64,000 nucleotides of DNA from Ktedonobacter sp. (lineage in GTDB: Bacteria; Chloroflexota; Ktedonobacteria; Ktedonobacterales; Ktedonobacteraceae): the NCBI GenBank assembly GCA_041156125.1, contig JBEVTI010000008.1, positions 63,659 to 127,658 of the forward strand. The letters are read 5' to 3'. Shown piece by piece: positions 9,907 through 57,679 of this stretch. The notes under the pieces are model-generated. The model was not told where the DNA came from. It searched no databases and saw only the letters and a list, made by a program, of their open reading frames with translations. The position numbers were made by a program, and so were the translations under genes. Within the stretch, counting starts at the first letter, position 1, and every line of letters begins with the position of its first letter.

Positions 9907-10034
9907 TTGCTTTTGAAAAGCAGGCCAAAACAGCTTTTGCCTCGTTTATAGCGGGAAAGATTCCATGTGTTATACTTGTTTGTATACGAGAAACGATTTT
10001 GTTGATTAGCCTTAATGGTCAGAGAAGAAGACCC

Positions 10035-18520: not shown

Positions 18521-20909
18521 GCTTGCCTAAATCGCGCTCGACGTGGCTCACATCTTTGATGCGCGCCAGTTTCTGCAATACAATACGCATCTGCTCCAGG
18601 TTCTCAATTTCCAGCATGAGCGTGACCACTGCCTGCTCACGGCTACTAGAAATATGGGAACTAACAGAAGTTATGTTAACACCCGCCTCGGAGACGATAG
18701 CCGCGATGTCGTGAATCAGTCCCGAGCGATCGCGCGCAGTAATCACAACCGGCGCGAGGTAGCGCTGCTGGTCCATCGTGGTCCAATTGACATTGATCAG
18801 CCGTTCGCGCTCGCGCTCACGATAACGCTCAATATTTTTACAGTCAGCGCGGTGAATAATCGCTCCTTTACCCCGGCTGATAAAGCCCACAATCTCATCG
18901 CCGGGCAGCGGACAGCAACAGTTCGCCAGTGAGGTAAGCAAACCGCTCACCCCTGCCACCTGCAACTGCGGCGCGGGCGTGCTACGCGTGACCACGGTCA
19001 GAGTGCGCTCTTCTTTGATCTCGACGCCATAAAGCTCTTGAACCTTGACCACTACGGCGCGCGGACGCAGTTCGTCGCAGCCAATACTCGCCAGCACATC
19101 CGCGAATGCCTCTTTGGCAAAGAACTTGCACAGCGCCTCCTGCGCGTCTTCGCCAATCTCTTCAACATCACGTATCGCCAGACCCTTCAGCTCGCGCTCC
19201 TGATTTTTCAGCTCACGCTCCAGGCGCTCGCGTCCGATCTGTATATTAATATCGCGCTCATAGACCTTTAAGTAGCGGCGAATCTTGCTCTTGGTCGCGG
19301 CAGTGCGCGCGAAATTTAACCAGTCGCGTGTTGGGTGAGCCGTACGTGTGGTAATGATATCGACAATATCGCCGCTCTGCAACTCGTAGTCCAGTGGCAC
19401 CATACGAGTGACCATATGTTTACCATCGCCATTGCCACTCTCGGTCGTCACGCGCGCGCCCGCGCAATGATCGCCGACCTGTGTATGCACGCGGTAAGCA
19501 AAGTCTAGCGGCGTCGAGCCAACAGGCAGATCTTTGACCTCGCCTTTAGGCGTAAAGACGAAAATCTGCTCTTCCAGAAATTCGTCGCGTACAGCTCTGA
19601 CAAACTCGCTATCACTGGAGGTGGTAGCATGCAGTTCGCGCTGCCATTCAGCCAATTGGCGCAGCCAGGAAAGTAACTCCCTGGCCGAGGCCGAGGCATG
19701 ATCGCCGATATCTTTATAGTGCCAGTGCATCGCGACACCATATTCGGCCTGCTCGTGCATCCCATGAGTGCGAATCTGCACCTCTACCAGCTGATCCTCC
19801 AGACAGAAGATCGTTGTGTGTAAAGCCTGGTAACCGTTGGGCTTAGGATTGGCAATAAAATCCTTGATACGCCCCTCTTTCGGCCTCCAGAGACTATGAA
19901 CATGTCCCAGAGCCAGGTAACAATCTGAGGTTGTATCGACCAGGATACGAAAGGCAATAAGGTCATGGATCTGGCTCAAATCAGCCTGGCTGAGAGCCTC
20001 AATCCGTCCATCATCGCTCATCGAGCGCTTAAGTTTTTGATAAAAACTGTAGAGATGCTTGACCCTGCCCGAAACTTCAGTTTGCAAACCCAATTTGCCC
20101 ATCTCGTCGCGCAAAATTGTGCAGACACGCTCGACATAAGCTCGCCACTGCTTGCGTTCTTCTTCGATCACGCTTAGCAGCCAGGTGTATTTCTCTGGCT
20201 CTAACACAGCGAAGGCCATGTCCTCCAGCTCGCTCTCCAGGCGCGACATACCCAGGCGACCGGCCAGCGGCGCGTAAATCTCCTGCGTCTCCCGCGCCAT
20301 CGTCAACAATTCCTGCGCATCCACAGCATAGCTCTTTGCGTAACCTACGCGCATCAAATGCAGTCGATAGGCCAGTTTTAAGAGCACAACGCGCGGATCT
20401 TCCGCCATCGCGAAGAACATCTTGCGTATCGTTTCCGCCTGGCGACGACGCTGATTTTCACGAATACGCTGCTTTTTGGGATCGTTGTTCTCTGCCTCAG
20501 CCTGACTAAGCTGAACTTGCGTCATACTTTGTTGCTTACGCTCCAAAATATTCATACGCAGCATACTATCCACGACACGCGCTACTGCTATCCCCAGCTC
20601 TTCCTCAACTTGCTCTAACGTCACCAGAGCGGCATCCACTGCTTCAAAAATCAGACCAGACGAGATCCCGATCGCGTCAATATGCATTTGCGCCAGAATA
20701 TTGGCTACAGCTAACGCGTACTCTAAAGGGGGGATCAAACGCAAACCACGCACACCTTCGCAGGTCTGTCGCGCGAGTTGGAGAGCATTTCGCACCTGCT
20801 CCTGTTCCACAGGCGGCATATAGCTTGCGATAAACTGGAGTAATTTTTGAACCGCGTCCCCAACAGGCTCCTTCTCTGCCGGCTCTTCACTAGTTGGCAT
20901 TTTTATCAT
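18513..20909 (-). CDS. RelA/SpoT homolog (HD-like, synthetase, TGS, ACT); hydrolase HD domain degenerate, synthetase motifs intact
   Basis: Synthetase motifs GRVKHLYSFYQK, GRIKDFIANPKPNGYQALHTT, EVQIRT, AEYGVAMHWHYKD present; HD region reads IPPLEYA...LIFEAVDAA...LAYRLHL (HP, HD and ADRLHN residues substituted). Start set at MIKMPTSEE. Confidence 0.85.
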   Translation of the reverse strand: MIKMPTSEEPAEKEPVGDAVQKLLQFIASYMPPVEQEQVRNALQLARQTCEGVRGLRLIPPLEYALAVANILAQMHIDAIGISSGLIFEAVDAALVTLEQVEEELGIAVARVVDSMLRMNILERKQQSMTQVQLSQAEAENNDPKKQRIRENQRRRQAETIRKMFFAMAEDPRVVLLKLAYRLHLMRVGYAKSYAVDAQELLTMARETQEIYAPLAGRLGMSRLESELEDMAFAVLEPEKYTWLLSVIEEERKQWRAYVERVCTILRDEMGKLGLQTEVSGRVKHLYSFYQKLKRSMSDDGRIEALSQADLSQIHDLIAFRILVDTTSDCYLALGHVHSLWRPKEGRIKDFIANPKPNGYQALHTTIFCLEDQLVEVQIRTHGMHEQAEYGVAMHWHYKDIGDHASASARELLSWLRQLAEWQRELHATTSSDSEFVRAVRDEFLEEQIFVFTPKGEVKDLPVGSTPLDFAYRVHTQVGDHCAGARVTTESGNGDGKHMVTRMVPLDYELQSGDIVDIITTRTAHPTRDWLNFARTAATKSKIRRYLKVYERDINIQIGRERLERELKNQERELKGLAIRDVEEIGEDAQEALCKFFAKEAFADVLASIGCDELRPRAVVVKVQELYGVEIKEERTLTVVTRSTPAPQLQVAGVSGLLTSLANCCCPLPGDEIVGFISRGKGAIIHRADCKNIERYRERERERLINVNWTTMDQQRYLAPVVITARDRSGLIHDIAAIVSEAGVNITSVSSHISSSREQAVVTLMLEIENLEQMRIVLQKLARIKDVSHVERDLGKRK

Positions 20910-21323
20910 GGCACGTTTCCAGTCAACAACATAAGAGGGCTTCCTCGCTGAGTAAACAGATAAACAGGCACTACACTCGCGGCACCCATTCACCCGCTCA
21001 GCATGAGGCGCGCTATGCGTTGTAAGCATAGATAGGCTCTGGTTACTAATCCTCGATCACTCTATTTCTTTCACGCCCATTACAGATAATACGTAGACCG
21101 CAGAAAAAATTCCCCTTTCCCGGCCAGGTTTTATCCATAACCCACTGCGCTTCTGCATCACTCTATTTAGACGATCGTGAATGTTTCGCGAATAAAGCGC
21201 AAAAAAAACGCACTACATAATCCAGACATATCAGTACGCGGCGCCAACGTCAGCGGCCCGGCGCCGTACACAAGCAGCCAGTTATGACTCATGATCTAGC
21301 GTGAAGAACGCACTGCACAGGCT

Positions 21324-23639
21324 CTAGCTGGTGTGGCGCCCCAGATCACGCGCCACGCTGACTACATTTTTGACCTGTTTAAGCTTCTCGTAGACGGGAT
21401 CAATCTGGTCAAGCTGGGTGATTTCAAGTGTAGCAGTAATCGTAGCACGTTGGAGCGAGCTTCTAGTCGTAGAAGCCATTGCGGTTATGTTAATACCAGC
21501 GTCGGAAACTACCGCGGCTACGTCGCGCAGCAGACCAGGCCGATCGCGCGCGACTACTATTGTGGGAACCAGAAAATGCTGTATCTCTATCTGGAGCCAG
21601 TTGACATCAATCAAGCGCTCACTCTCCTGATTACGATAACGGCGCAGAGTGCGACAGTCACTACGATGCACAATAATTCCCCGATTGGGGTTGACCGTGC
21701 CAGTAATCGCATCTCCAGGCAAGGGGCAACAGCAGTGAGCCAGGTTGACGACAATCAATGGCGCTTCATTCTTTTCAGAACTCTGCGTCAGACTCTGTTT
21801 GCGACTTTCAATACTCTCACTGGTCTTGAAGTCTCCGCGACTTTGCAGGATGGGGGCCAGATGATTGATCAGAGCCATCACCGGGAATTCCGCGCGGCCT
21901 AGCGCGAGATAGAGGTCATCCACTGTGATGTATTTCTTACTAGCAAGAAACTTTGTCAGATCTTCATCCTGGACGATCCCAATGCCGTTGGCTCCCATAG
22001 CCTTTAATGCCAGATCAACGCGCTCACGTCCCAGTTGCAAGTTGACTTCTCGCTCGTACGTTTTGAGATAGCGGCGGATCTTGTTCTTGGCCGAAGACGT
22101 ATGGGCAAAGTTTAACCAGTCACGAGTTGGATGCATCTTTGGATTAACAATGATATCTACAATCTCACCGCTTTTGAGTTCGTAGTCCAGCGGAGCAAAG
22201 CGCGTCACCAGACGCCCACTATCCTCCATATTGGTAACGATGCGCGCGCCAGCGCAGTGATCGCCAATATCGCTATGAACACGATAGGCCAGATCCAACG
22301 GCGTCGAGCCACGCGGCAGGTCTTTGACCTCGCCCTTGGGCGTAAAGACAAAGATCTGCTCCTGAAAAATATCCCCTTTGACCGCTTCAACAAACTCATC
22401 CGCGTTTTGCGGCAACTCACGCTGCCAATCTCGCAGTTGTTCGATCCAGGCAATCATCTCATTGGTAGAGAGGCGCGCACCGCCGCGATCCTTCATATAC
22501 CAGTAACTGGCAATGCCATAGTCCGCGGTACGTTGCATCTCGTGCGTGCGAATCTGAATCTCGGTCAGACGATTATCCAGACCAAAAACGGTGGTGTGCA
22601 GCGACTGATAGCCATTGACTTTCGGAATAGCGATGAAATCCCTGATGCGCCCATCAGTTGGACGCCAGAGCGCATGAATATAGCCCATCGCCAGGTAACA
22701 ATCGTGAACCGAGTTCACCAGAATGCGGAACGAAACCAGGTCGTGAATCTGCTCAATCTCGCCATTGTTCTGTTTCAACTTGCCGTACAGGCTGGACAGG
22801 TGCTTCTGCCAGGAATACACCTCAGCTTTAATACCGGCGTTCTGCATTTCTTGTCGCAACATCTGACAAACTCCCTCAGTGTGCGACTCGCGTTTTACGC
22901 GCTCTTCCTCAACTTCGCGAGCCAGCCAGGTGTATTGTTCAGGTTCCAGATAACTAAAGACGAGATCCTCCAGTTCAGCCTGCACAAGGATCATGCCCAG
23001 CCGCCTGGCCAGTGGCGCGTAGATCTCGCGCGTCTCGCGCGCCTTACTCTGCTGCTGCGTGGGATTCATCGCGCTCAGTGTACGCATGTTATGCAAGCGA
23101 TCTGCCAGCTTCAAGACCACTACACGTGGATCTTCGGCCATGGCCAGCAACATTTTGCGCACAGTTTCGCTCAACTGACGACGCTTCAGGTCACGCACCT
23201 GGCGCTGACGTTGCTCCATCTGCTCGGGCGTCTCAGGTATGCCTGGCGCTGGTTTCTCTTTGCTACCCTTGGATTTCAGCGCCAATGCGTCAAACTTGGT
23301 GACACCATCGACAATGTTGGCCACAGCTTCCCCAAAGCGCGTGCGCAATTCCTCCAGTGTAAAATCTGTATCCTCTACCACATCGTGGAGTAGCGCCGAG
23401 GCAATCCCATCCGCGTCAATACGCATATCCGCCAGCAAGAGCGCCACCTCCAATGGATGCAGGATGTACGGTTCCCCTGAACTGCGCGCAACTCCGGTAT
23501 GGGCTTGTTGTGCAAGTTCAAAGGCATCTTGAATCTTCTGCAGATCCTCTAGAGATAGGTACTCTGATGTCTCAGCCAGGAGATGCTCAAGCGTTATCTG
23601 AGATAATGCGATCGCTTCATTAGAATTAATGGCTACCAT
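21324..23639 (-). CDS. RelA/SpoT homolog with intact HD hydrolase domain; synthetase motifs partly substituted
   Basis: HPLEVA...LLHDVVEDT...LADRLHNMRTL intact; synthetase region SWQKHLSSLYGK (R to W), GRIRDFIAIPK (K to R), ADYGIASYWYMKD (H to Y). Start set at MVAINSNE with GAGGTG upstream. Confidence 0.85.
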   Translation of the reverse strand: MVAINSNEAIALSQITLEHLLAETSEYLSLEDLQKIQDAFELAQQAHTGVARSSGEPYILHPLEVALLLADMRIDADGIASALLHDVVEDTDFTLEELRTRFGEAVANIVDGVTKFDALALKSKGSKEKPAPGIPETPEQMEQRQRQVRDLKRRQLSETVRKMLLAMAEDPRVVVLKLADRLHNMRTLSAMNPTQQQSKARETREIYAPLARRLGMILVQAELEDLVFSYLEPEQYTWLAREVEEERVKRESHTEGVCQMLRQEMQNAGIKAEVYSWQKHLSSLYGKLKQNNGEIEQIHDLVSFRILVNSVHDCYLAMGYIHALWRPTDGRIRDFIAIPKVNGYQSLHTTVFGLDNRLTEIQIRTHEMQRTADYGIASYWYMKDRGGARLSTNEMIAWIEQLRDWQRELPQNADEFVEAVKGDIFQEQIFVFTPKGEVKDLPRGSTPLDLAYRVHSDIGDHCAGARIVTNMEDSGRLVTRFAPLDYELKSGEIVDIIVNPKMHPTRDWLNFAHTSSAKNKIRRYLKTYEREVNLQLGRERVDLALKAMGANGIGIVQDEDLTKFLASKKYITVDDLYLALGRAEFPVMALINHLAPILQSRGDFKTSESIESRKQSLTQSSEKNEAPLIVVNLAHCCCPLPGDAITGTVNPNRGIIVHRSDCRTLRRYRNQESERLIDVNWLQIEIQHFLVPTIVVARDRPGLLRDVAAVVSDAGINITAMASTTRSSLQRATITATLEITQLDQIDPVYEKLKQVKNVVSVARDLGRHTS

Positions 23640-24065
23640 CCAACACCTCGGCGTTTCGGGAAGAATATCTTGCACCTAGTTTAAACCACAAACGCGTACA
23701 ATGCAACGAAAATGTCAGGCGTTCTCGATATAGTATCTTACGGATAACGAACAAGTAATGTCACGAATCCGCGCCTGGCCCGTATATTTAACGCTCTCTA
23801 GGGCCTGGACCGGCTTAGCAAGACCGATCCCGCGCAACGCCGCGCTCCTGATAGAGGGTTCCCTCGCTGGAACAAATTTCTCTCGCTCTTAAAATACATT
23901 CCCCCTAATAAGGACGTAATGTCAAGAGGCTTCTTAAAAGATGTGGCAAATTTGGGGAAAAGGAAAACCCCTATCCAACCATACACTCAGGTAAGGCTGA
24001 ATAGGGAGTGAAAACGGCTCTTCTAATTAACATCATCAGAAGGCCGATTAAGAACATTCGCTTAG

Positions 24066-24431
24066 CTAACTGCGGGCCACGCGAATCTTATCGTAGCAGG
24101 AGCTGCAATAGACAGGTCGGTCGTTCTTGGGCAGGAAAGGTACCTGCGTCTCCACACCGCACTCCGCGCAAGTGACAGTATGCATCTCGCGAGGCGCACG
24201 CTCAGAACGTCCGCCAGATCCAGCTTCCGAGCGGTGGCGCGCACGACAACTCGAACAACGGCTAGGCTGATTCAACAGACCTTTTTGCTGGTAAAACTCC
24301 TGTTCGCCTGCGGTAAAAATGAAATCATTTCCGCAATCACGGCATTTAAGGGTCTTGTCAACGAAACTCAAACCAGAGACCTCCTTGTGATATGATGGTA
24401 TTCCTCCGGGTCCATATCCTTGCAGAGTCAC
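24066..24431 (-). CDS. tandem CxxC zinc-ribbon protein (zf-trcl-like)
   Basis: Two modules CxxC-x(17-20)-CxxC: KCRDCGNDFIFTAGEQEFYQQKG...CSSCR and CAECG...CSSCYDK. Confidence 0.55.
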   Translation of the reverse strand: MTLQGYGPGGIPSYHKEVSGLSFVDKTLKCRDCGNDFIFTAGEQEFYQQKGLLNQPSRCSSCRARHRSEAGSGGRSERAPREMHTVTCAECGVETQVPFLPKNDRPVYCSSCYDKIRVARS

Positions 24432-24714
24432 CAGTCGTCTGTCACCTCTAGCAGCGCGGGACTAATTGTTCTGGACGAACACTGTATACCAGACCGAGAT
24501 CGGATACCGTTGGAAAGCATACACTATACTTTAGCGATTAGCAAGACTTTTTCTTTTAAAAGCAGGGGCTTCTTCACATTTTAATAAAATTTTTATGTGT
24601 ACTCTGTCTATATAGGAATTTTAAATGCTTAAACTGTATTTAGTAAGGCTGCCAAACAGAACCAGTGCTCTGTCAAGCTTCAGTTGAGGAATGCGAGAGA
24701 ATGGAAGTGCAGTC

Positions 24715-25049
24715 TGAGTCATCCCTGATTTTGCAAAATCAGACCAAAACAGGTTTTGCCTCCCCGCCCCCTTGTGTTTTGCAGAGGTTTGGCGGGCGTT
24801 GCAGCGCACGCCAAACCTCTGCAAAACACAAGGGGTGGGGAGGACAACGCGCTCATGCTGCTTCAGAAAAATTGGATACCGTTGGCGAACTCCTTTTATG
24901 AGCCTCTGGCACCTCGCACCTGTTCTTGTGTGGCTGGTGAGCGGCCTGGCCGCTCACCAGCCACACAAGAACAGGTGCGAGGTGCCAGAGGCGCCGAGGA
25001 GTCCAGAAGAAGCGTGCGCCAACGGTATCAAAAATTGGGGATGACTCAT
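24715..25049. mobile_element. MITE-like palindromic repeat element, copy 1 (about 335 bp) with inverted termini CTGAGTCAT / ATGACTCAT
   Basis: Contains 86-nt near-perfect palindrome 24905-24990 nested inside gataccgttggcg...cgccaacggtatc; second copy at 57418-57679 in opposite orientation. Confidence 0.6.
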
Positions 25050-46391: not shown

Positions 46392-46444
46392 CTGCTCGAC
46401 AAAGGCGATATTGTCATGGTATGCTCTAGAACATAGAGCGTAGG
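46392..46444 (+). promoter_or_regulatory. 53-bp promoter-like element (TCGACA-18 nt-TATGCT), copy 1, upstream of XRE gene
   Basis: ctgctcgacaaaggcgatattgtcatggtatgctctagaacatagagcgtagg; near-identical copy (3 mismatches) at 50588-50640. Confidence 0.5.
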
Positions 46445-50574: not shown

Positions 50575-50587
50575 ACGAGCGGCATCC

Positions 50588-50640
50588 TGCTCGACAAAGG
50601 CGATACTGTCATGGTATGCTTTGGAACATAGAGCGTAGGT
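50588..50640 (+). repeat. 53-bp promoter-like element, copy 2, 13 nt after kinase-TIR stop
   Basis: ctgctcgacaaaggcgatactgtcatggtatgctttggaacatagagcgtagg. Confidence 0.5.
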
Positions 50641-51995: not shown

Positions 51996-52093
51996 GTTCC
52001 AATCTCTACCGAGAAGCCGCCCCTCTATCCACCGTTATTGGAACGCCGTTTCAACATCCTTATCACAAGTTCCAATCTCTACCGAGAAGCCGC
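51996..52093. repeat. two identical 25-bp direct repeats separated by a 48-nt spacer
   Basis: gttccaatctctaccgagaagccgc at 51996-52020 and 52069-52093; spacer contains inverted partial copy attggaac. Confidence 0.5.
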
Positions 52094-52337
52094 TCCTCCT
52101 CGTAGCATCGCGCAGTAACTTTGTTTGACTCGCGTTCCAATGCAGCGGAGTATACATGCTCGCAGTTCACAGCGTCTTTCAACGCCAATCGCCCAGCGGC
52201 ATGACATACATCACGCGAGATTGCAGCGTCCCTCTCCATCCATCGTGAGGCTAGCGGGGTATCCCTTATAGCAAATGAGCATCTTTAAGTCAGGTATTCT
52301 ACAGCAGTTTCCAGTTGTAGAAGTATCCCGCCTGGCA

Positions 52338-57371: not shown

Positions 57372-57416
57372 TTAATGCATCATGCCTGATGCGAAACATC
57401 AGGCATGATGCATTAA
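57372..57416. terminator. 20-bp perfect hairpin with 5-nt loop directly abutting MITE copy 2
   Basis: ttaatgcatcatgcctgatg cgaaa catcaggcatgatgcattaa. Confidence 0.5.
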
Positions 57417-57417
57417 T

Positions 57418-57679
57418 ATGAGTCATCCCCAATTTGATACCGTTGGCGAACTCCTTTTATGAGCCGCTGCGCGGCTCATGGCTTCCTGTTCTGGTGTGGC
57501 TGGTGAGCGGTCAGGCCGCTCACCAGCCACACCAGAAAGAACAGGTGCGAGGTGCCAGAGGCGCCGAGGAGTCCAGAAGAAGCGTGCGCCAACGGTATCC
57601 AATTTTTCTGAAGCAGCACAAGCGCGTTGTCCTCCCCACCCCTTGTGTTTTGTAGAGGTTTGGCCTGATGATGACTCAT
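57418..57679. mobile_element. MITE-like palindromic repeat element, copy 2 (262 bp) with perfect 9-bp inverted termini ATGAGTCAT / ATGACTCAT
   Basis: Same core palindrome and subterminal modules as 24715-25049, opposite orientation, about 70 bp shorter. Confidence 0.65.

Follow-up and report, generated by a model that had tools for sequence, protein, structure and literature searches.

A 64,000-nucleotide stretch of a Ktedonobacter sp. contig (JBEVTI010000008.1 of assembly GCA_041156125.1), here called the window, carries between a zinc-finger gene and tgt a deeply palindromic repeat of about 335 bp, a second copy of which lies further along the stretch. The initial annotation, made from the letters alone, took the repeat for one non-autonomous mobile element with several palindromes inside it. 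The analysis reported here makes it very probable that the locus is a nest of two non-autonomous miniature inverted-repeat transposable elements (MITEs) from two unrelated DDE-transposase families, the inner one lying inside the right end of the outer one. What seemed to be one exotic element resolves into two ordinary selfish ones. The two copies in the window are called W1 and W2, external loci to which they were compared are given L numbers, and the parts of the locus are the following.

24714-25049, forward strand: outer MITE, copy 1, about 172 bp once the insert is removed
24756-24847, no strand: palindrome A in outer copy 1, with 46-nt arms that are 85% complementary; copy 2 keeps only its right half
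24867-24874, forward strand: left target-site duplication (TSD) of inner copy 1, AAAAATTG, an exact 8-bp direct repeat abutting the inner element
24875-25029, forward strand: inner MITE, copy 1, 155 bp, IS1182-family type
24902-24992, no strand: central palindrome of inner copy 1, with 45-nt arms, 100% complementary, and 1 nt between them
25030-25037, forward strand: right TSD of inner copy 1, AAAAATTG
57418-57679, reverse strand: outer MITE, copy 2, about 92 bp once the insert is removed, with TA...TA flanks
57430-57435 and 57600-57605: TSD of inner copy 2, a 6-bp duplication, CAATTT
57436-57599, forward strand: inner MITE, copy 2, 164 bp
about 57461-57477: small hairpin GAGCCGCTGCGCGGCTC in inner copy 2, just upstream of the central hairpin
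57489-57537, no strand: central hairpin of inner copy 2, with 22-nt perfect arms and a 5-nt loop

The outer terminal repeats of copy 1 are CTGAGTCAT at 24714-24722 and ATGACTCAT at 25041-25049, so that the bounding inverted repeats of the initial annotation hold. The terminal inverted repeats (TIRs) of this outer element read CTGAGTCATCCCTGATTTT on the left and CAGAAAAATTGGGGATGACTCAT on the right, the latter interrupted by the inner MITE, and positions 25030-25049 are the tip of the right TIR. Inside lie exact 13-nt TIRs of the inner element, GATACCGTTGGCG at 24875-24887 and CGCCAACGGTATC at 25017-25029; the second inverted pair that had been noticed here (gataccgttggcg/cgccaacggtatc) is present, but it is the TIR of a separate IS1182-family MITE and not internal decoration. 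The core between the 13-nt repeats has the same chromosomal orientation in both copies (122/138 positions identical in +/+ alignment versus 104/144 in +/-), and its asymmetric ends, AACTCCTTTTATGAG... and ...GGAGTCCAGAAGAAGCGTG, are identical between them. Outside the core the copies align in opposite orientation only, copy 2 being without 74 nt of the outer part that copy 1 has. The core is therefore flipped relative to the frame between the two copies, which makes core and frame separable units; of the earlier description of an inverted second copy, the copy itself stands, but only its outer frame is inverted. The lack of coding capacity is borne out, as the open reading frames (ORFs) over the element match no Pfam family and indels of 1, 3, 1 and 4 nt between W1 and W2 leave no reading frame conserved. 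Independent assemblies reproduce copy 2 at 100% identity (L032, a contig of a metagenome-assembled genome, MAG) and copy 1 at 99.9% (L159). Short-read assembly contigs end at or within the element, as is usual for repeats, and the nest explains the breaks at these sites.

The inner element is a MITE of a clade of the IS1182 family of insertion sequences (ISs), and it counts as a separate MITE because it has its own TIRs, its own TSDs of 6-8 bp and a parent IS family distinct from that of the frame. When one genome per species was scanned, the TIR pair turned up at a spacing of 125-160 nt at 22 loci, of which 21 were retained; the locus dropped, L001 in Halioglobus, has neither the GA/TC flanks nor the AAT extension and probably matches by chance. 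The retained loci fall into four phyla (Cyanobacteriota, Chloroflexota, Alphaproteobacteria and Acidobacteriota), with Nostoc, Moorena, Drouetiella, Phormidium and Anabaena representing the first and Anaerolineaceae and Aggregatilineaceae the second, the other carriers being Acetobacteraceae, Rhodospirillales, Rhodopila and one Acidobacteriaceae MAG. Across the loci a 16-nt block, GATACCGTTGGCGAAT, is essentially invariant and every occurrence of this type is a member of a tight pair, while the interiors of 105-135 nt are unrelated between lineages. Of 25 copies, 10 have GATACC...GGTATC immediately flanked by an exact direct repeat no shorter than 6 bp, about 0.006 being expected by chance, and both window copies are among the ten (8 bp and 6 bp). 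A literature search with the TIR strings returned unrelated primer sequences only, none of the accession numbers looked up in papers was found there, and a metagenome scan with a core-specific 24-mer gave no match.

Full-length parents were reached by BLAST of the joined TIRs against plasmids. The TIR GATACCGTTGGCG(AAT), 13-16 bp long, brackets full-length IS1182-family ISs in Actinomycetota, Gammaproteobacteria, Alphaproteobacteria, Deinococcota and Bacteroidota. In Streptomyces a 1793-bp IS bounded by GATGCCGTTGGCGAAT contains a single ORF, and the transposase scores 336 bits on the NCBIfam IS1182 equivalog (cut-off 270) and matches Pfam DDE_Tnp_1_6 and DUF772; one Streptomyces relative is annotated as ISSdi1-like, and Streptomyces homologues dominate among the matches listed in a protein search with the IS1182-clade transposase. 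Variants of the TIR bracket an IS1182 transposase gene in Pseudomonas (GATACTGTCGGCGAAT), Deinococcus (GATACTGTCGGCCAAT), Methylobacterium (GACACTGTTGGCGAAG) and Hymenobacter (GATACTGTTGGCGAAT), and relatives at about 50% identity carry such variants together with abutting TSDs, which measure 7 bp in the IS of Pseudomonas sp. K-62, 7 bp in that of Deinococcus psychrotolerans and 6 bp in that of Methylobacterium radiotolerans. On a Hymenobacter psoromatis plasmid (L035, 2891-5108) a 129-bp MITE and a 1868-bp IS lie 220 bp apart with identical TIRs and 6-bp TSDs, the transposase of the IS being divided between two ORFs, each of which matches the IS1182 model. This MITE and this IS occupy the same position in two inverted copies of a host repeat (GTTACAACGGGGCGAAAAATTA), and of their TSDs one reads CAACGG and the other its reverse complement, CCGTTG. 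A Methylobacterium nodulans plasmid carries a further 121-bp MITE with a 6-bp TSD. In the mechanism envisaged, an IS1182-clade transposase acting in trans would bind both TIRs and excise or copy the inner element, which would then enter its target at a 6-8-bp staggered cut.

Three observations concern inner-type sequences elsewhere. The half-site ATCGGATACCGTTGGAA at 24499-24515, 360 bp upstream of copy 1, matches the inner TIR at 11/13 positions, is shared by L159 and may derive from an older copy or be due to chance. Fremyella/Tolypothrix plasmids (L024, 4001-4030) contain a bare 30-bp palindrome, GATACCGTTGGCAAATTTGCCAACGGTATC, in which two inner-type TIRs directly adjoin each other, with neither interior nor TSD; it is found on at least three related plasmids and may represent a minimal element, the product of an internal deletion or the relic of a circle junction. 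In Anaerolineaceae MAGs (L002, L008 and L019-L022) an inner-type MITE is likewise enclosed by a frame, here a GC-rich palindromic repeat (...CCGCGCACGC, core, GCACGCGGAGAAAG...), in which it occurs either way round.

The opposite orientation of the core relative to the frame in W1 and W2 might also be expected of an invertible DNA switch, in which a recombinase flips the segment between the 13-bp inverted repeats and so regulates the neighbouring genes. The probability of this is next to nil: no recombinase or invertase gene lies near either copy, independent assemblies show a single orientation per locus, the segment is without a promoter-like site, and the repeats are transposon TIRs with TSDs. 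Integron attC sites, dif/Xer sites and the palindrome-associated transposable elements of the IS200/IS605 type are likewise set aside, since we take them not to fit the pattern of TIRs plus TSDs.

The outer frame, for its part, is also a MITE; its family, IS4/IS701-like but unclassified, is abundant in Ktedonobacteria. At least 120 metagenome loci match its 18-nt terminus, many of them at contig ends, and among the matches listed are full-length elements of 1553-1594 bp as well as MITEs of 172-258 bp. The ends of the family read ATGAGTCATCCC(C/T)NATTTT... and ...AAAATTGGGGATGACTCAT, and a 1571-bp IS in a Ktedonobacteraceae MAG (L161) has exactly the TIR pair of copy 1. Flanks were tested on 33 complete non-redundant elements with both ends, full-length ISs and MITEs together, and are Y...R in 31/33, T...A in 28/33 and TA...TA in 27/33; both window copies, flanked by T...A, fit the signature of a Y before and an R after ATGAGTCAT...ATGACTCAT. 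No longer direct repeat stands beside any of the 33 elements at any boundary offset, hence the duplication made by the outer family is 2 bp, namely TA, or AT within YATR. A 3-bp TSD for the frame (AGT/AAT), considered at one point, is a coincidence by the same test.

Full-length outer copies encode one protein of 475-510 aa that matches the DDE_Tnp_1 superfamily only, with the IS4 and IS701 models as the best hits. Its scores are 46.5 bits on IS4_1 (cut-off 115), 38 on IS701 (cut-off 170) and 21.7 on Pfam DDE_Tnp_1 (cut-off 23), with E = 0.11 against the Tn5 transposase; the parent resembles an IS4/IS701-type IS yet fits neither family and stays below every curated cut-off. An IS630/Tc1-type parent, an idea that came from the TA flanks, was dropped on the evidence of this DDE_Tnp_1, IS4/IS701-like transposase. 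Ktedonobacteraceae MAGs, Reticulibacter mediterranei and Dictyobacter alpinus carry annotated homologues. Hardly any occurrence of the parent lies outside Ktedonobacteria and soil metagenomes, and the window itself comes from one of the Ktedonobacteraceae. No relative of the outer transposase is encoded in the window. The dependence on a transposase in trans that the initial annotation had proposed is thus upheld, with no such gene in the window and parent ISs found elsewhere. It had also suggested a search for an IS with matching termini, the absence of which, together with that of any copy besides the two, it held to favour a duplicated structured-RNA gene; such ISs exist for both the inner and the outer element, so this is not the situation encountered. 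Two minor matches to the outer element occur in the window: an isolated extra ATGACTCAT at 21284, taken as chance, and TGCTTTTGAAAAGCAGGCCAAAACAGCTTTTGCCTC at 9908-9943, which is 86% identical to two small hairpins at 24726-24762 in the left part of outer copy 1, shows compensated changes in the first of them, and may be a third fragment or a common hairpin motif.

The nesting itself can be read from the junctions. Once the core and one TSD copy are removed, both window copies give the same junction, CTTCAGAAAAATTGGGGATGACTCAT; the inner MITE sits in the outer right TIR and its TSD covers AAATTG, 12-13 bp from the tip. Of the roughly 119 non-redundant metagenome outer termini, four from independent soil loci (L087, L093, L100 and L133) are filled with an IS1182-type TIR at exactly this position, about 89 clearly continue as outer TIR and are empty, and about 26 fall outside the simple classifier used. 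The outer elements that are filled do not all come from one subfamily, and their interiors are unrelated. The TSD is 7 bp in L093 (AAAATTG) and 6 bp in L133 (AAATTG), an element of a different outer-MITE subfamily. Freed of its core and one TSD copy, L133 is 82 bp long and aligns without a break over the insertion point with six unfilled relatives, which is direct filled-versus-empty evidence for the insertion of the inner element in this subfamily. The cores of L093 and L133 are diverged homologues of the window cores (interior-only z = 5-8; a common GCCGCTGCGCGGCT block).

These results bear on the single 335-bp MITE of the initial annotation, which would have termini CTGAGTCAT/ATGACTCAT, all palindromes internal and one transposase. 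That the outer termini and the core are both common to the two window copies agrees with it, but the core has TIRs, TSDs and a parent IS family of its own and is flipped relative to the frame, the outer family mostly comes without it, and a pair of empty and filled sites is documented at L133. A single element is extremely unlikely, and that part of the earlier description has to be replaced by an inner MITE in the right end of an unrelated outer MITE with ATGAGTCATCCC... ends. One of the four filled termini is more elaborate. At L087 (571-1940) an outer-family TIR, an IS1182-type TIR and a complete ISAs1-family IS, which interrupts the inner element, form a triple nesting; the locus was considered as a full-length IS1182 element at the hot-spot, but the ORF there is the ISAs1 transposase (200 bits, cut-off 70).

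How often the inner element has landed at this position is a separate question, to which a single nesting event offers one answer. The composite would have spread by means of the outer transposase, the core would have been flipped later, through recombination or template switching between its own 13-bp repeats, and the differences in TSD length would reflect slippage in an A-run. In line with this, all filled sites have their junction at the same position, W1, W2, L093 and L133 have homologous cores, all differences in TSD length fall within an A-run, and template switching, judging by a TIR change in L159 described below, operates at the locus. We nevertheless consider one event unlikely. It has to accommodate filled outers in different subfamilies with unrelated interiors, the existence of unfilled members of the L133 subfamily and the small share of outer termini that are filled at all (about 4/119); moreover, the wider inner family makes 6- and 7-bp TSDs at unrelated sites, and in Hymenobacter one and the same sequence has been hit independently in two copies of a repeat, by a MITE in one and by a full IS in the other. 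Repeated, site-preferring insertion is favoured by the variety of outer subfamilies, by TSD lengths of 6, 7 and 8 bp, by the occurrence of both orientations and by the double hit in Hymenobacter. We infer that the inner element prefers the nesting site as a target and has entered it more than once; W1 and W2, with their opposite relative orientation and their TSDs of 8 bp and 6 bp, would then be independent insertions.

A number of observations pull the other way, whether on the nest as a whole or on its parts. The data on the window copies are also compatible with one nesting event followed by inversion and A-run slippage. The first base of outer copy 1 has mutated (C in place of A), and the left TIR of outer copy 2 is truncated after ATGAGTCATC; the right TIR of the window inner copies departs from the 16-bp consensus at positions 14 and 16, and a clean TSD is missing in 15/25 copies of the inner family. 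Some 72 kb of sequence, made up of the window and 8.5 kb beyond it (walking the contig leftwards), contain no copies other than these two. No IS1182-type transposase is encoded in the window, in the 8.5 kb beyond or at the 22 genome loci, so that in this host the inner MITE is at best a candidate for present-day mobility. Finally, upstream of tgt in another MAG (L030, 1-310; GCA_036401475.1, contig 48), there is a compact form in which the outer tip borders a third core variant left and right, with no TSD and with a 110-nt left flank that is not in the window. Because contig 153 of the same MAG shows the window arrangement, this form points either to recombination, in a mixed population, between copies nested in opposite directions or to a chimeric assembly.

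The palindromes, which first drew attention to the locus, turned out larger than described. The near-perfect 86-nt palindrome (24905-24990) is cleaner as well, with the 45-nt arms of 24902-24992 fully complementary, and the one with 27-bp arms at 24769-24836 extends to palindrome A. Folded as DNA, the core reaches z = -21 relative to shuffled controls; folded as RNA, the complete 335 nt reach z = -26. The inner subfamily is marked by long perfect palindromes at the centre of its elements, the perfect arms measuring 45 nt in W1, 39 nt in L093, 31 nt in L133, 28 nt in L030 and 22 nt in W2. These five copies fit one architecture, in which 19/56 pairs have changed on both sides with pairing kept, one compensated change falling within the TIR of L133. 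Where W2, L030 and L133 keep a small hairpin, the left arm of W1 is the exact complement of its right arm, and from this comparison the 45-nt palindrome of W1 appears to be a derived extension that overwrote the ancestral small hairpin. A similar event can be seen between strains. In the 99.9%-identical strain (L159) the outer right TIR of copy 1 reads AAAATCAGGGATGACTCAT, compared with AAAAATTGGGGATGACTCAT in the window, a clustered change that makes the right TIR the exact complement of the left TIR of the same copy. Taken together, the sequences suggest that the arms are kept complementary by arm-to-arm intrastrand template switching, in which one arm would serve as template for the other and so restore complementarity.

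Compensated changes are also what would be seen if the core were a structured RNA or a DNA hairpin with a cellular role, such as a small RNA (sRNA), a terminator or a protein-binding site, and if the hairpin were under selection. The 19/56 pairs maintained through two-sided changes in five diverged copies and the extreme folding z-scores would suit such a role, as would the positions of the two copies, of which copy 1 lies in a divergent promoter region, between tgt and the gene for a treble-clef zinc-finger protein (zf_Tbcl), and copy 2 between convergent genes. However, no Rfam model matches at the gathering score anywhere in the 64-kb window, and in permissive mode only eukaryotic microRNA-hairpin models respond, on both strands and at about half their thresholds, which is taken as an artefact. 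A simple scan found no promoter-like sites in the element, terminator-like sites do not exceed the shuffled expectation, and the big hairpin is not followed by a tail of the U-tract type. The interiors of the wider inner family are unrelated between lineages, and compensated changes are expected from arm-to-arm templated repair of the kind seen in the L159 comparison. Templated conversion is preferred to selection on an RNA because of the overwritten arm in W1 and the clustered TIR change in L159; a selected hairpin with a cellular role is very unlikely, and a regulatory role of the element as a source of promoters, terminators or sRNAs, which the initial annotation had envisaged, is not supported.

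A wider proposal on target choice has, in our estimate, about an even chance of being right. It holds that the IS1182-clade transposase targets by feature, choosing AAATTG in the TIR of an unrelated IS in Ktedonobacteria and the loops of short hairpins resembling repetitive extragenic palindromes (REPs) elsewhere, and that the palindrome of the element itself is continuously re-perfected by template switching. Outside Ktedonobacteria, 6/16 reconstructed empty sites have the TSD in a hairpin loop whose stem is perfect over 6 bp or more, compared with 1.9% of random sites; at the two sites in the window it is not in such a hairpin loop. If the proposal were true, this would be a transposon specialised for life inside other repeats.

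IS1182-derived MITEs have been published before, namely the ISMac2-derived elements of Methanosarcina acetivorans, which are 160-169 bp long (PMC3852290). The inner element is like IS1182 ISs and these MITEs in having the TIR of a full-length IS1182 element, a size of 141-172 bp, no ORF and an abutting TSD. It differs in the TSD length, which is 6-8 bp here whereas a 4-bp TSD or none is listed for published members (ISPse1 and the ISMac2 MITEs), and, compared with published IS1182 MITEs, in a TIR that is near-invariant over at least five phyla, in its long perfect palindrome and in its recurrent insertion in the TIR of another element. The outer element shares with IS4 and IS701 a single DDE_Tnp_1 protein of 475-510 aa, TIRs of about 25 bp and MITEs of 170-260 bp; unlike them it scores far below the cut-offs, makes a 2-bp duplication and has a lineage-confined parent, the flanking duplications of IS701 and IS4 being 4 bp and 8-13 bp, respectively. 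Neither MITE family was found under any name or description in the libraries and literature searched.

The insertion of one element into the end of another has precedents, as IS231A inserts into the termini of Tn4430, and nested MITEs occur in cyanobacteria and plants. The present case resembles the IS231A/Tn4430 pair in that an element lands repeatedly at one defined point of the terminal repeat of a second, but here the guest is a MITE, and host and guest come from different DDE families. REPINs are lineage-specific and are not known to make target duplications; the elements described here, like those of the REP/REPIN-RAYT systems, in which RAYT (TnpA_REP) transposases do the mobilising, are short, highly palindromic, intergenic, multi-copy and non-coding, and unlike them have TSDs and DDE-type parent ISs. 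Among the window ORFs examined there was no RAYT gene, although no search aimed at RAYT was made. Quasipalindrome correction by intrastrand template switching is known as the Ripley model, and the clustered multi-base differences that make one arm the exact complement of the other look the same here, from sequence comparison alone; the templated arm-to-arm changes would be a natural example of palindrome maintenance by this route. As IS1182-family transposases are poorly characterised, the near-invariant 16-bp TIR, found in at least five phyla, and the recurrent landing site provide a testable handle on DNA recognition and target choice in the family. In addition, the boundaries, TIRs and TSDs of the two MITE families will aid the annotation of Ktedonobacteria, a transposon-rich and little-studied soil lineage.

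The genes around the two copies encode zf_Tbcl, TGT, LplA, Fmt and an NB-ARC/TPR protein. The zinc-finger gene beside copy 1 has its real start at a TTG at 24371, preceded by the ribosome-binding site AAGGAGG. Copy 2 adjoins a perfect hairpin at 57372-57416 with 20-nt arms (TTAATGCATCATGCCTGATG...CATCAGGCATGATGCATTAA), which looks like a bidirectional terminator with a weak T-tail. Elsewhere in the 64 kb there are no tRNA genes, and GCGATCGC (HIP1) occurs 6 times where 2.3 occurrences are expected, even though the host belongs to the Ktedonobacteraceae and is not a cyanobacterium. A 53-nt direct repeat, 94% identical, is found at 46392-46444 and 50587-50639, 4.2 kb apart (CTGCTCGACAAAGGCGATATTGTCATGG...), and a 30-nt repeat, 97% identical, at 51996-52025 and 52069-52098 with a spacing of 73 nt. 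Lastly, the stretches 19452-19925 and 22242-22703 share 71-74% DNA identity, and as one of them lies within a RelA/SpoT gene (21324-23675), a paralogous second gene of the RelA/SpoT type may lie some 2.8 kb from the first.

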